A stretch of 6,696 bases of DNA from a virus (taxonomy: Duplodnaviria > Heunggongvirae > Uroviricota > Caudoviricetes). Made by a program: the position numbers and the translations under genes. Numbering within the stretch: position 1 is the first letter of the stretch; each line of letters starts with the position of its first letter. The notes beneath the pieces are model-generated. The model was given only the letters and a program-made list of their open reading frames with translations, was not told the DNA's origin and searched no databases. The stretch lies in the IMG/VR virus record IMGVR_UViG_2606217117_000014; one strand, written 5' to 3'. Positions 365-5,422 of this stretch are shown piece by piece.

Positions 365-739
365 ATGCTCATAGATTTGGTTTTACCTTACCCGCCGACG
401 GTGAACACTTACTGGCGACGCCGTGGCAGCACATATTTTATCTCGGAGGAGGGAAAGCGTTATCGCCGGGCTGTGGCGCTTATTGTTCGCCAGCAGCGGC
501 TGAAATTAAGCCTGTCCGGAAGGCTGGCGATAAAGGTGATTGCAGAGCCACCGGATAAGCGTCGTCGCGACCTGGACAATATCCTGAAAGCACCGCTGGA
601 TGCGCTGACGCATGCGGGAGTGTTAATGGACGATGAGCAGTTTGATGAAATCAATATCGTTCGTGGTCAGCCAGTATCTGGTGGACGTCTGGGGGTGAAG
701 ATTTACCCCATAATGCATGAAGAGCAGGTCAAAAAATGA
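365..739 (+). CDS. rusA: RusA-family Holliday junction resolvase (lambdoid prophage endodeoxyribonuclease)
   Basis: 124 aa. Contains PPDKRRRDLDNILKAPLDALTHAG, matching the recalled RusA catalytic block (DRRRRDLDN...FDALT). N-terminal LPYPPTVNTYW parallels RusA LPWPPSNNRYY. SD-like AGAGGTGA lies 5-6 nt before the ATG. Confidence 0.85.
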   Translation: MLIDLVLPYPPTVNTYWRRRGSTYFISEEGKRYRRAVALIVRQQRLKLSLSGRLAIKVIAEPPDKRRRDLDNILKAPLDALTHAGVLMDDEQFDEINIVRGQPVSGGRLGVKIYPIMHEEQVKK

Positions 740-1557
740 AACTGGAAGATTTACCGAAATACTACTCCCCAAAATCCCCTGGCCTGACCGATGCATCGGC
801 CTCAACGTCAAAAGATGCGCTGAGTATCACTGATGTGATGGCCGCGCAGGGCATGACACAGAATCGGGCTGAGATGGGTTTTTCTGCGTTCCTGGGGAAA
901 ATGGGCATCAGTATGAATGACAGGGTGCGGGCAACAGAATTACTGGCAGATTATGCACTCAGTCGGTGCGATCGTGTGGCGGCGTTGAGAAAACTTCCGG
1001 CAGAAATAAAACCGGTAGTGATGCGCATTATGGCTTCGTACGCTTTTGAGGATTATGCCCGCAGCGCAGCGAGTAAAAAGCAGTGCCCTTGTTGCTATGG
1101 GGAAAAATTTATTGAAAGCATAGTTTTTACAAACAAGGTCCAGTATCCGGATGGTAAGCCGCCGGTATGGGCAAAGTGTACGAAAGGTGTGTATCCGTCT
1201 TACTGGGAAGAATGGAAAAAAGTCAGGGAGGTGGTAAAAGTTGCCTGTCCGGAGTGTGGCGGAAAGGGTGAGGTTTCCACCGCCTGTAAGGATTGCCGTG
1301 GGCGTGGTGTCGCCATTCACCGTGAAGAGTCGGTAAAACGTGGTATGCCTGTTATCAGAGACTGCCAGCGTTGTGGTGGTCGTGGCTATGAAAGACTACC
1401 ATCAACGGAGGCATTTAATGCTATATGCGAGGTGACAAACCAGATAACACGCGCGTCATGGGAAAAAACAGTTAAGAAATTCTATGATGCGCTGGTGACC
1501 CGGTTTGATATTGAAGAAGCATGGGCTGAGCGGCAGTTAAAAAAGGTAACTAGGTAA
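736..1557 (+). CDS. Late-gene antitermination protein Q (QuuQ/Q-like) with DnaJ-type CxxCxGxG zinc-finger repeats
   Basis: 273 aa. Start ATG overlaps the rusA stop (ATGA at 736-739). Lies directly upstream of a lambda-like pR'/tR' pair. N-terminus MKLEDLPKYYSPKSP resembles recalled Qin QuuQ. Three repeats CPECGGKG, CKDCRGRG, CQRCGGRG. Confidence 0.75.
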   Translation: MKLEDLPKYYSPKSPGLTDASASTSKDALSITDVMAAQGMTQNRAEMGFSAFLGKMGISMNDRVRATELLADYALSRCDRVAALRKLPAEIKPVVMRIMASYAFEDYARSAASKKQCPCCYGEKFIESIVFTNKVQYPDGKPPVWAKCTKGVYPSYWEEWKKVREVVKVACPECGGKGEVSTACKDCRGRGVAIHREESVKRGMPVIRDCQRCGGRGYERLPSTEAFNAICEVTNQITRASWEKTVKKFYDALVTRFDIEEAWAERQLKKVTR

Positions 1558-2584: not shown

Positions 2585-2808
2585 CCGGGTATCAGTTAGC
2601 GGGAGAAATTTTTAAATACTTCACAATTCAGGCGGTTGACTGTTGTCTGGTTTGCGGGGAGTTTGTTAAAAGAAACTGGCATGGTGAATCCCCCTGTGCG
2701 GAGGGGCAATCAGCGAGTAGGTATATGGGATAATCGCGGATTCAGGTGCTGGTACTGAATTCACCGGGAGGCACCCGGCACCATGCAATGGCACATAGCG
2801 CCACTCTC

Positions 2809-2838
2809 CAGCCCCTCTCCGGAGGGGCTGTTTATATT
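2809..2838 (+). terminator. Rho-independent terminator, plus-strand orientation
   Basis: 9-bp GC-rich stem CAGCCCCTC (2809-2817) / GAGGGGCTG (2822-2830), 4-nt loop, followed by TTTATATTGATTTT. The reverse-strand flank is not U-rich. Confidence 0.6.
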
Positions 2839-2861
2839 GATTTTGTCAGATGTGAGTAAAC

Positions 2862-2895
2862 TCCTTATGGACTTTGTTGTTTTAGTCCATAAGGA
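2862..2895. repeat. Perfect 12-bp inverted repeat with 10-bp spacer (TCCTTATGGACT-N10-AGTCCATAAGGA)
   Basis: Read directly from the sequence. Overlaps the last about 10 codons and the stop of the minus-strand gene 2865-3200. Confidence 0.75.
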
Positions 2896-3200
2896 CATAT
2901 TTGCAGAGTGCAACGGTTATTAAAGCATTCATTCAATACGTTATCTGTATTTGTAGGACATTCCTGGCTGTTTTTGATTAAATTCCAGAATGTTTTATTG
3001 AATGGTGCTACGTTGTAAATGGTTACAGGTAGCACTTTGTTATTGAGCATGATACCTGTGTGAGTCAGTGTAAATATACTTTCAGGAGGTAAGAAAGCAT
3101 CCGATTGATACCAGATTATTAATTTTATTTTACTCCATATGACTGAAAAAGATATTCCGCATGATGGCTGGATAACTGTATCAATCACAATCCACTTCAT
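2865..3200 (-). CDS. Hypothetical Cys-containing protein, 111 aa, AT-rich moron gene convergent to the late operon
   Basis: Strong SD AAGGAA 6 nt upstream of ATG (plus 3198-3200). A 111-codon open frame in DNA that looks very AT-rich by eye is unlikely by chance. Translation: [18 protein letters not shown]...[10 protein letters not shown]. No recognisable family. Confidence 0.55.
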
Positions 3201-3240
3201 TTAGTTTCCTTGTTTATGTCTTGCTGGTGATGTTCTGAAA

Positions 3241-3267
3241 AGTATAAATGATATTTTTGAATGTAAA
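3241..3267 (-). promoter_or_regulatory. Candidate sigma70 promoter for the minus-strand 111-aa gene
   Basis: Minus strand reads TTTACA (plus 3262-3267), 15-nt spacer, TATACT (plus 3241-3246), about 35 nt upstream of the RBS. Spacer is shorter than optimal. Confidence 0.3.
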
Positions 3268-3460
3268 CCATAGAGCAGAATTATTTTTCTGATGTTGTTT
3301 ATTGTTTATTTAAATGCAGGGTGGTTTATATCTCGTCTTGTAGTTTATCCATGCATATCTGCTTGATGATGAGGTTTTTATTTAAGGTATGGTTTTGTGT
3401 TTTTTCTGTATTACATGTCAGGTATTTTAAAGAATTATTTTTCAGATGGTGGAAAGAACC

Positions 3461-5422
3461 ATGGCATTTAAACACTATGATGTTGTCAGGGCGGCATCGC
3501 CGTCAGACCTTGCGAAACGACTGACACAAAAACTGAAGGAGGGGTGGCAGCCATTTGGCAGTCCGGTGGCCATCACGCCTTATACCCTGATGCAGGCCAT
3601 TGCGGCGGAAGGTGATGTCACCACACCTGTGGTGGTGAAGCCGTCGGATGGAGAAGGCGCAGTTATCAGCACCACCAGCAACCCGGAGTATTACTTTGTT
3701 GTTGCCCTGGCCGGGCAGTCAAACGGTATGGCGTATGGTGAAGGGCTTCCGCTGCCGGAGACATATGACCGTCCGGACCCGCGTATTAAACAGCTGGCGC
3801 GTCGCAGCACTGTCACGCCGGGTGGTGCGTCCTGTAACTACAATGACATTATTCCTGCGGACCACTGCCTGCATGATGTTCAGGATTTGAGTAAGTTTTC
3901 ACACCCGAAAGCCAGCGCAGCTCAGTATGGATGCGTGGGGCAGGGATTACATATCGCGAAGAAATTGTTGCCGTTTATTCCGGCGAATGCCGGTATTCTT
4001 CTGGTTCCGTGCTGCCGTGGTGGTTCTGCATTTTTGGCGGGCGATGAAGGTACCTTCAGCGAATCCACCGGCGCAAGCGAGACCTCGGCACGCTGGGGTG
4101 TTGATAAGCCACTGTACAAGGACCTGCTTACCCGTACTCAGGCCGCACTGAAGGCCAACCCTAAAAATATTCTGCTTGCAGTGGTCTGGATGCAGGGCGA
4201 GTTTGATTTGAAACAGGGTGCATACGCCACTCAGCCGGGGCTGTTTGATTCCATGGTGGAAAAATATCGTTCTGACCTGTCGGAATTCGGAGGTCAGTGT
4301 CTCGGGGGCTCTCCGTCATCGGTTCCCTGGATTTGTGGCGACACGACCTACTACTGGAAGCAGACTTATTCTTCGCAATACGATGCGGTGTATGGTGCAT
4401 ACAAGACGAAATCCGCAAAAAAAATCTTCTTTGTGCCGTTTATGACGGATGAAAACGGGCGAAATGTGGGTACCAACGAGCCGTCAGAAGATCCGGATGT
4501 TGCGGATATTGGGTATTACGGAGGCGGTGGTCGAACGGACGCCAAAACCTGGACGACGGCCGACCGTAAAACGCATTTTGGATCATGGGCACGTCGTGGG
4601 ATTATTTCCGACCGTCTGGCAACGGCGATTCTTGTGCATGCCGGGAGAAACGCTGAATTCATTACCGGAAAACAGCCTGATACGGTGAAGCCCACCGGAC
4701 CTTCCGGTGAAGGTACGGAGAGAGAGCCGGAAGCCCCGGTCAGTAACCGAACCCTGATGAGTCTGCTGGCGTCCGGCGAAGACCTGGCATCACAGGGCTG
4801 GCGCTATTATCACAAACCGGCGAGCGGAGACAATGTTAACAAAAACATTGCTGAAGCGGTGGTCAGTGATGCGGGGGCTACGGGAGGTAAGGCCCTGCAA
4901 CTGAATAAACCGGAAAACCACATCTGGTTTCTGGAGCATGATGCAGCCGGACAGGGAGTGGAGTTACTGAAGAAGGGGGGACGTGTGAGCGTACGGTTTA
5001 AGTTGCCGGGTTCACTGGTGCCGAATCAGTTTGCCCTGGGCATTTACTGGCAGTTGTCGTCCCTGCCGGAGGGAGTGACGCTGGCAGAGGAAGGCAACGA
5101 CATGCTGATGTCCTTCTTTCTGCAGACGGATGCGACGAACCTGAACGCGATGCACCACAAGAAGCCGAATGCGAAGCTGGAAACGTTCGGGGTCTTTGAT
5201 AACGGATGGCACACACTGGCTTTTGAGTTTGCCGGAAACAACAGCATTCAGGTGACGCCGGTACTGGATGAGAAACGGGGGACGCCGTTCACACTGGTGA
5301 AATCTCCGGCATCAGGGGCGGCGGACAAACTGCAACTGACAGGCATATCAAAGGCGGCGACATATACGCTGCTGATTGACAGTGTGAAGGTGGAAGTGAA
5401 CAACGCGGACATCGCGGCATGA
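3461..5422 (+). CDS. nanS: Prophage sialate O-acetylesterase, NanS-p type (N-terminal DUF1737-like region, SASA/SGNH esterase domain, C-terminal extension)
   Basis: 653 aa from ATG 3461, which has SD GGTGGA 7 nt upstream; the ATG at 3446 has no SD. Block VVALAGQSNGMAYGEG carries the GQSN serine motif of the sialate O-acetylesterase family. Size and position match recalled nanS-p genes downstream of stx. Confidence 0.8.
   Translation: MAFKHYDVVRAASPSDLAKRLTQKLKEGWQPFGSPVAITPYTLMQAIAAEGDVTTPVVVKPSDGEGAVISTTSNPEYYFVVALAGQSNGMAYGEGLPLPETYDRPDPRIKQLARRSTVTPGGASCNYNDIIPADHCLHDVQDLSKFSHPKASAAQYGCVGQGLHIAKKLLPFIPANAGILLVPCCRGGSAFLAGDEGTFSESTGASETSARWGVDKPLYKDLLTRTQAALKANPKNILLAVVWMQGEFDLKQGAYATQPGLFDSMVEKYRSDLSEFGGQCLGGSPSSVPWICGDTTYYWKQTYSSQYDAVYGAYKTKSAKKIFFVPFMTDENGRNVGTNEPSEDPDVADIGYYGGGGRTDAKTWTTADRKTHFGSWARRGIISDRLATAILVHAGRNAEFITGKQPDTVKPTGPSGEGTEREPEAPVSNRTLMSLLASGEDLASQGWRYYHKPASGDNVNKNIAEAVVSDAGATGGKALQLNKPENHIWFLEHDAAGQGVELLKKGGRVSVRFKLPGSLVPNQFALGIYWQLSSLPEGVTLAEEGNDMLMSFFLQTDATNLNAMHHKKPNAKLETFGVFDNGWHTLAFEFAGNNSIQVTPVLDEKRGTPFTLVKSPASGAADKLQLTGISKAATYTLLIDSVKVEVNNADIAA

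Follow-up and report, generated by a model that had tools for sequence, protein, structure and literature searches.

STnc100 is a Gammaproteobacterial small RNA (sRNA) that was first reported in Salmonella, and few sRNA families are annotated more often in bacterial genomes (PMC9029176). In Escherichia coli O157:H7 Sakai, the sRNA EcOnc05 was recovered by UV-crosslinking to Hfq (Hfq-CRAC) and gives a discrete Northern band of ~222 nucleotides (nt) (Tree et al. 2014, PMC4104026). According to the same authors, at least 8 Sakai prophages harbour pairs of convergent, Hfq-bound sRNAs in the "moron" slot downstream of pR′. EcOnc06 measures ~177 nt (PMC4104026), and its gene is convergent with that of the anti-sRNA AgvB. 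EcOnc27, also termed sRNA103, runs at ~235/247 nt on Northern blots, and its 247-nt form is destabilised without Hfq (PMC4104026); its overexpression leads to higher fimZ and espA transcript levels. For strain EDL933, which has 11 STnc100 copies, RNA-seq reads were found for 10 and a Northern signal for one. In enteropathogenic E. coli (EPEC) E2348/69, PasD1 and PasD2 are Northern-verified sRNAs with Hfq-dependent stability and targets found by sequencing of ligated, interacting RNAs (RIL-seq) (Pearl Mizrahi et al. 2021), and a 2026 preprint describes PasD and STnc100 as descendants of one ancestor (Zhu, Shabalina & Storz). Here we analysed a stretch of 6,696 nt from a virus of the class Caudoviricetes (IMG/VR record IMGVR_UViG_2606217117_000014), hereafter the window. 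A segment of it without open reading frames (ORFs), at positions 2585-2838, had been proposed from the sequence to encode an sRNA (the original prediction).

We propose, with a probability of about 0.72, that this element encodes an Hfq-dependent, trans-acting base-pairing sRNA in which a conserved scaffold carries a swappable seed. The sRNA itself is already known. Only the pseudoknot and the distribution of the core reported below may be new, and both are properties of the family, not of this locus in particular.

Results

The element matches STnc100 and EcOnc05

The whole window was scanned against Rfam, a check that the original prediction had suggested. RF02076 (STnc100), whose gathering score is 47 bits, matched at 2650-2839 (+) over its full length (model positions 1-206 of 206) with 132.4 bits (E = 7.3e-30), and it was the sole strong non-tRNA match of the window. 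All RF02076 consensus helices are found in the window copy. The model begins ~30 nt 5′ of helix P1, at window position 2650, and this part may be promoter DNA rather than RNA.

The identity of the element was narrowed down further by published probes. The reverse complement of the EcOnc05 Northern probe (supplementary table of PMC4104026) matches 2708-2742 exactly, and the EcOnc06 probe matches 2721-2755 with 1 mismatch. Positions 2621-2829 are 100% identical to prophage Sp4 of E. coli O157:H7 Sakai, and divergence is seen only past the terminator stem. The sequence identifies the element as an EcOnc05 allele and a canonical member of STnc100. The regulatory sRNA of a prophage late region that the original prediction had suspected is thus borne out as a full-length, high-scoring member of a described family. 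A 501-nt query around the element matches about half of the complete E. coli genomes, at up to 12 places per genome.

Conserved helices of the 5′ domain

The RNA at 2679-2842 folds with -69.5 kcal/mol (z = -2.87), and none of 200 shuffles was as stable. The full interval of the original prediction folds less distinctively (z = -1.66). Its first ~94 nt (2585-2678) are intergenic and promoter DNA outside the structured RNA, and an sRNA starting at 2585 is not upheld. Homologues were collected by scanning one genome per species for the 22-mer at 2762-2783, which yielded 110 stretches from many Enterobacteriaceae genera; in a sample of them, Rfam assigned most to STnc100. Helix covariation was counted on a MAFFT alignment (A1) of 105 distinct cores. 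The whole proposed structure is 80.1% paired in these cores, compared with 42-47% when partners are slid, and none of 500 column shuffles reached its covariation score.

The 5′ domain of ~108 nt consists of helices P1, P2, P4 and P5 and an H-type pseudoknot. It is closed by P1, whose 5′ strand GCAUGGUG (2679-2686) pairs with CACCAUGC (2779-2786). In P1, 90.5% of the cells are paired; the outer three pairs covary (GC/UA/CG/AU) and the inner five are invariant. Hairpin P2 is positioned at 2689-2706, with pairs 2689-2692/2703-2706 and 2693-2694/2700-2701, a bulged A2702 and the pentaloop UGUGC (consensus UnnGC). Its six pairs are 94.9% paired and show compensation of the whole helix (CCCCC/GG-GGGG, GCGGC/GC-CGCG and CCUUUC/GAAAGG). 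P2 corresponds to the CCCCT/AGGGG hairpin of the original prediction, which is real and reads CCCCC...GGGG. The variable P3 region (2716-2737) ends in a conserved GCG (2736-2738), of which G2738 makes the first P4 pair. P3 varies in length and sequence between subfamilies and falls inside the target of the EcOnc05 probe.

P4 occupies 2738-2762 and is formed by GGAUUCAG, a 9-nt loop and CUGAAUUC, with 2738-2745 pairing with 2755-2762. P4 covaries strongly: 87.8% of the cells in its outer four pairs are paired, despite numerous substitutions in either strand, and a stem of at least 4 bp abuts CACCGGG in 102 of the 105 copies, with very diverse arm sequences. P5 (CCGGG-AGGCA-CCCGG, 2764-2778), the second hairpin that had been recognised correctly, abuts the 3′ strand of P1 with no linker. 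A further sample of 102 copies was drawn from IMG/VR and anchored only on the 5′ half. In it, the 22-mer 2762-2783 is exact in 66 copies, and the others carry 1-3 differences that are mostly wobble-compatible. No compensatory changes were seen in P5 among the 105 cores, and the support for this helix is purely thermodynamic.

Covariation supports a pseudoknot in the 5′ domain

The segment AUCAGCG at 2709-2715 can pair with UGCUGGU in the P4 loop (2747-2753). Counted on the MAFFT alignment, this interaction appears weak (~50% paired), since the stretch that follows P2 differs in length by 1-3 nt and puts the subfamilies out of register. An alignment-free permutation test was therefore used. For each of 77 non-redundant copies, the 14 nt that follow P2 were compared with the P4 loop of the same copy, and the longest complementary run had a mean length of 6.33. 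When the loops were permuted among the copies, the mean run was 4.60 ± 0.12 with a maximum of 5.03, and none of 5000 permutations reached 6.33. About 70 different helix sequences occur at this position. The sequence comparison indicates that an H-type pseudoknot in the conserved 5′ domain is supported by covariation. The RF02076 consensus structure line from cmscan does not include a pseudoknot. No description of an STnc100 pseudoknot was found in the literature searched, and the 2026 Pas sRNA preprint does not mention it. The comparison across homologues that the original prediction had called for supported the nested helices P1, P2 and P4 by covariation and the additional pseudoknot as well.

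A hypervariable linker carries the candidate seed

The linker AAUGGCACAUAGCGCCACUCUC (2787-2808) lies between P1 and the terminator. In the minimum-free-energy fold it forms a small hairpin (2789-2803) and leaves CUCUC (2804-2808) single-stranded. Over 212 copies, the 30 nt after P1 show an identity of 0.28, the random level, with 163 distinct sequences. The corresponding values for the core are 0.98 for the 3′ block and 0.77 for the 5′ block, both partly inflated by the selection of each sample on one block. Among the 22 copies whose two core blocks equal those of the window, 10 different linkers were found. In PasD, the seed UGUGAG is part of the linker, and the RIL-seq chimeras of that RNA fall within its 3′ ~50 nt. 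By analogy with PasD, the linker is likely the seed region of the window allele.

Tandem arrays of two or three STnc100-type genes, spaced 220-700 nt apart, are present in some phage contigs and genomes (L121 at 2433, 3096 and 3328; L169 at 4383, 4644 and 5357; L126; L025:3442-3792). Of these tandem cases, only L025 was inspected, and both of its copies are equipped with a linker and a terminator of their own. With such an arrangement, one scaffold could offer several seeds.

Predicted ends of the transcript

The 5′ end of PasD2 has been estimated from RNA-seq coverage (PMC8550237; NC_011601: 741157). Aligned to the window, it falls on the G that opens helix P1, and the sRNA most likely starts at ~G2679. 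The predicted promoter comprises a -35 element TTGTCT (2643-2648), an 18-nt spacer, an extended -10 TG (2664-2665) and a -10 element TAAAAG (2667-2672), and it is contained in a conserved upstream block at 2609-2678 (+). The PasD2 promoter aligns with it (TTGACT-18-TAAAAA), and near-consensus promoters (TTGACA, 17 nt, TAnnnT) occur at the same place in other genera. Promoter-like sites were found in 25% of 182 distinct upstream regions and in 7% of shuffles, a 3.5-fold difference, and in 25 of the 45 sites the -10 element ends exactly 7 nt 5′ of TGGTG. We infer the promoter at 2643-2672 from the PasD2 5′ end and this positional enrichment in homologues.

The intrinsic terminator is located at 2809-2845 (+), with a stem 2809-2817/2822-2830, the loop UCCG and the tail GUUUAUAUUGAUUUUG. 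The terminator scan reported a 9-bp stem (7 G-C) at 2809-2830, a 4-nt loop and the tail TTTATATTGA; the folds and the 3′ end of the RF02076 model agree with it. A 3′ end at ~2838 is suggested by this terminator, and the sRNA gene would span ~2679-2838 (+), with a predicted transcript of ~160 nt. The original prediction had described a clean terminator at 2809-2838; the strong hairpin stands, and "clean" is slightly generous for a U-tract that is interrupted. The terminator tail is presumed to be the 3′ binding site of Hfq. In 54 of the 110 copies, an intrinsic terminator that passes stringent criteria follows P1 within ~95 nt.

Proposed mechanism of action

In the mechanism that we favour, a Q-independent sigma-70 promoter directly upstream would start the RNA at the base of P1, and the RNA would be made in lysogens. 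The transcript would measure ~160 nt, possibly up to ~215 nt. Its first ~108 nt would fold into a compact P1-closed domain containing P2, P4, P5 and the pseudoknot formed by the P4 loop with the segment that follows P2, and this pseudoknotted domain would act as a conserved scaffold. The hypervariable linker would carry the seed, here likely around CCACUCUCC (2800-2808), and the intrinsic terminator with its U-tail would recruit Hfq. The RNA would then pair in trans, either with mRNAs of the host or prophage or with further sRNAs, the linker of each copy setting the specificity. This mechanism builds on the family membership, the identity with EcOnc05, the conserved structure with its pseudoknot, the modular conservation and the prophage context established here. 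Hfq binding and discrete transcripts of the identical allele and its relatives are taken from the literature. For the window allele, the exact 5′ end, the promoter, the position of the seed and the action in trans are inferred.

Several observations weigh against this mechanism. P1, P2 and P5 are nearly invariant across many genera, which seems to exceed what a passive scaffold would need, and the presence of the same core inside mRNA leaders suggests that the 5′ domain may have a function beyond the model. The -35 and -10 hexamers of the window are weak (4/6 each) and fail a stringent scan. The U-tract is interrupted (UUUAUAUU) and poorer than typical Hfq-binding tails, and it is exactly here that the window differs from Sakai. 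When the exposed linker was compared by RNAduplex with six start regions in the window, pairing was no better than in shuffled controls, and no targets of EcOnc05 or EcOnc06 have been published. In addition, a start at 2679 predicts only ~160 nt, whereas the EcOnc05 band measures ~222 nt. The larger size may reflect an upstream start near 2620, read-through of a weak terminator or a sizing error. With a start near 2620, GGGGAGU (2656-2662) could mask the proposed seed. As to sizing, EcOnc13 runs at ~187 nt on Northern blots and its homologue PasD measures 172 nt by RNA-seq, and the Northern sizes of the EcOnc study therefore appear ~8% high.

In phage Stx2 II, the STnc100 match (L003:3030-3235, +) ends 2 nt before an AsxR match (L003:3237-3289, -), and the convergent 3′ ends abut. 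Read-through into the terminator hairpin of the partner could give rise to the longer Northern species of EcOnc27 and EcOnc05.

The core occurs in other genomic settings

The core was also found outside the late regions of prophages. In ~19-20 species, it precedes a KdgM-family porin gene (PF06178) on the same strand at a distance of 100-230 nt. The next gene encodes a periplasmic pectate lyase (PF06917), and a LuxR-type gene is located divergently upstream. Such loci include L037 (core 1842-1978), L099, L009, L023 and ~16 others, and the arrangement is seen in Kosakonia, the Klebsiella oxytoca group, Raoultella, Enterobacter and Citrobacter. No strong terminator was found between the core and the porin ATG at these loci. 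A conserved block further upstream resembles what we take to be a KdgR operator.

The second setting is the early region of prophages. Here the subfamily with a fully compensated P2 (GCGGC...GC-CGCG) follows cI/LexA-like repressor genes and immediately precedes small ORFs and YfdQ/YfdR-like genes (L011:2309-2444 (-), L012, L017, L036, L053, L054, L034, L094, L086 and L006). In L011, P1 is extended to ~22 bp. The early- and late-operon positions had suggested an antitermination RNA resembling put, which was rejected since the RNAs end efficiently at the adjacent terminator.

Because the core occurs in kdgM and early leaders and the sequences of P1, P2 and P5 are almost invariant across Enterobacteriaceae, we kept the reading that the ~108-nt 5′ domain has a function of its own. 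That it is an autonomous module binding a specific cellular factor or a small molecule is possible, if somewhat doubtful. If this were true, STnc100, EcOnc05, EcOnc27 and related RNAs would be bifunctional, and the EcOnc27 polymorphisms associated with haemolytic uraemic syndrome might act through the 5′ domain.

A stronger version places the main function not in a seed but in the pseudoknotted domain, which would be a specific binding module, for example a decoy or adaptor site for a protein or a mimic of tRNA; the linker and terminator would mainly finish and stabilise the transcript, and the module would be reused in the mRNA leaders. P1, P2 and P5 are indeed conserved in sequence, the exact 22-mer being present in the 110 stretches and 98% identical in the sample anchored only on the 5′ half, and P3, P4 and the pseudoknot keep pairing only. 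The core also occurs upstream of the kdgM-family genes (~19 species) and in early-operon leaders. The junction is also cloverleaf-like, with P2 two unpaired bases after the 5′ strand of P1 and P5 abutting its 3′ strand. However, ARAGORN reports only the tRNAs at 1701-1776 and 1877-1951 and makes no tRNA-like call at the sRNA, the invariant loops yield no covariation evidence of tertiary contacts, and the domain has no known partner. Moreover, PasD, with a degenerate P5 and P1 3′ strand (41 bits), is still an abundant Hfq-bound sRNA with RIL-seq targets. We consider this version unlikely, and the scaffold-and-seed mechanism remains our preferred explanation.

The sRNA gene is a free-standing unit of the prophage late region

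No ORF of at least 60 amino acids (aa) overlaps 2585-2838, in agreement with the original prediction; the longest measure 50, 46, 42, 40, 37 and 37 aa. The statement that the segment is not AT-rich holds as well, with a GC content of ~0.50 over 2500-2899, 0.34-0.47 just upstream and 0.30-0.38 just downstream. The sRNA gene lies between the gene of the late antiterminator Q and the lysis genes, and the same context is seen in Stx1, Stx2, Sp4 and EPEC prophages. It is a free-standing gene in the moron slot of the late region of a lambdoid prophage.

Upstream on the (+) strand, RefSeq names RusA for a locus identical to this one (without window coordinates). A Q-type antiterminator gene (PF03589-type) lies at 736-1557 (+), and the terminator scan reported a tR′-like terminator directly after it (1638-1657, +). 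A tRNA with a CAU anticodon (1701-1776, +; Ile according to RefSeq, Met according to ARAGORN) and a tRNA-Arg (UCU) reported by ARAGORN (1877-1951, +) follow. The slot contains two tRNAs in the window and three in Stx2 II and Sakai Sp4. A 117-aa ORF with a TTG start (2064-2417, +) is unannotated in RefSeq and has no Pfam match, and the DUF3927 ORF annotated by RefSeq (2453-2584, +) directly precedes the segment under study.

Downstream, a 111-aa ORF at 2865-3200 (-) is annotated in RefSeq as the anti-adapter protein IraM, has no Pfam match at 1e-3 and lies in an island of 30-38% GC. A 12-bp perfect inverted repeat (2861-2872/2883-2894) spans the stop codon of this iraM-like ORF. It is followed by the gene of a NanS-p-type esterase (3446-5422, +) with the Pfam domains DUF1737, SASA and DUF6645. 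The iraM-like gene occupies the place of the convergent partner sRNA in Sakai Sp4; a partner sRNA as in the dyads of enterohaemorrhagic E. coli was looked for downstream and is absent.

The neighbour 5′ of the same RNA block varies by prophage and can be stx2B, stx1B, the DUF3927 ORF or tRNA-argO with a terminator-like hairpin. Because of this variation, we regard the RNA block as an independent module and not as a 3′ untranslated region (UTR). Homology to diverged phage copies starts at 2609-2621 and stops at the core or at the terminator.

We also considered that the segment has no independent function, being the 3′ UTR or terminator of the DUF3927 ORF or of the late transcript, or encoding a small peptide (25-codon ORF at 2681-2758). 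The sRNA does lie inside the Q-dependent late transcription unit, ribosome footprints are found on some EDL933 STnc100 copies (ribosome-coverage value up to 3.2), and RefSeq places a pseudo-coding sequence on the opposite strand. However, covariation keeps the RNA pairing and not codons, the length of P3 ignores the reading frame, in most copies the AUG at 2681 is missing or replaced by GUG, and discrete Hfq-bound transcripts are documented. The identical block in Sakai Sp4 stands behind a tRNA-Arg and a terminator-like hairpin rather than DUF3927, and in Stx phages it follows the stx genes, which ruled out a 3′ UTR of the DUF3927 ORF. Coding potential was ruled out likewise, with short ORFs only, an unconserved start codon and a variable P3 length. 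A lack of independent function is therefore highly improbable, and what the original prediction had named as refuting an sRNA was not found: the identical allele has a discrete transcript in the literature, the structure is conserved and covaries, and the RNA is no 3′ UTR.

RefSeq has no non-coding RNA annotation at a locus identical to this one, and its pseudo-coding sequence, an "incomplete hypothetical protein", lies antisense at window 2669-2794 (-). A hypothetical coding sequence of 133 aa is likewise annotated antisense to PasD1 in EPEC E2348/69. Both antisense annotations are probably artefacts of an unannotated RNA gene.

The downstream genes bear on another explanation, in which the element is a cis-acting leader or riboswitch-like attenuator of the next gene (nanS-p in Stx-type phages, kdgM elsewhere) and the sRNA is a prematurely terminated leader. 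A structured, pseudoknotted domain followed by a terminator would suit this role. The element stands directly upstream of a same-strand SASA-type esterase gene in Stx phages, in Sakai Sp4 and at the EPEC PasD2 locus, and the porin genes of ~19 species follow it with no strong terminator between. A loose functional theme, sialic acid, connects NanC, NanS and the phage esterases: NanC is a KdgM-family porin, and NanS belongs to the same sialic-acid pathway as the phage esterases. In the window, however, nanS-p is set apart from the RNA by a 336-nt gene on the opposite strand. Many prophages have holin and lysozyme genes next, PasD1 precedes a holin gene, and the set of downstream genes is mixed overall (holins, lysozyme, esterase, KdgM porin, early phage genes, an opposite-strand gene). 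No conserved antiterminator pairing was seen, and the terminator sequences are unrelated between subfamilies. Many copies have their own promoter and a strong terminator, and RNAs of the family bind Hfq and have trans targets. We regard a cis-acting leader as very unlikely. A riboswitch-type antiterminator formed by the 3′ arm of P2 and the 5′ arm of the terminator is possible in the window and was dropped, as the pairing is not conserved in other subfamilies.

Discussion

The STnc100 gene of the window belongs to a family that merits attention. In a 2025 machine-learning study, polymorphisms overlapping the predicted sRNA directly downstream of stx2 were among the strongest predictors of haemolytic uraemic syndrome (PMC12711010). 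The pseudoknotted architecture, the combination of an invariant core with a hypervariable linker, and the core in kdgM and early-operon leaders offer handles for mutational analysis. The 2026 Pas sRNA preprint mentions neither the pattern of invariant core and variable linker nor the core in kdgM and early-operon leaders.

Of the known systems compared with the window sRNA, AsxR and AgvB (RF02703/RF02702) belong to an unrelated family. These share its moron region and bind Hfq, but they are sponges of 51-60 nt, conserved in their 3′ ~42 nt and encoded on the opposite strand. No match to RF02702 or RF02703 was found on either strand, in the whole window at E <= 1 or in 2780-3500 at E <= 10. The original prediction had brought up anti-sRNA sponges; the element is not of the AsxR/AgvB type and represents the other, longer member of the sRNA pairs at this slot.

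PasD1 and PasD2 are positioned as in the window, with the order DUF3927 ORF, sRNA and then esterase or holin gene. Their P1 5′ strand, P2 and promoter layout are homologous to those of the window, and their seed lies in the linker before the terminator. They are degenerate, more distant relatives (41 and 38 bits, below the Rfam threshold) in which P5 and the 3′ strand of P1 have decayed. The PasD linker is unlike that of the window, and its terminator tail is U8.

EcOnc27/sRNA103 of the Stx2 phage Sp5/933W, located 75 nt downstream of stx2B, shares with the window the family, slot, strand and the sequences of P1, P2 and P5, and it is Hfq-bound and Northern-verified. The copy in phage Stx2 II scores 208 bits against RF02076. 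The sequences of its P3, P4, pseudoknot, linker and terminator differ from those of the window, and its targets therefore presumably differ too. EcOnc27 is paired with AsxR on the opposite strand, whereas the window has no such partner.

The closest system is EcOnc05 of Sakai Sp4. Past the terminator stem, Sakai reads UUCUUAUGG and continues into the convergent partner sRNA (EcOnc08/21/42), whereas the window reads GUUUAUAUUGAUUUUG and continues into the iraM-like gene on the opposite strand. The upstream neighbour differs as well, being the DUF3927 ORF in the window and tRNA-argO followed by a terminator-like hairpin in Sp4. Between these borders, EcOnc05 equals the window element in the promoter region, the 5′ domain, the linker and the terminator stem, and it occupies the same slot, after Q and the tRNAs and before a nanS-p-type esterase gene.

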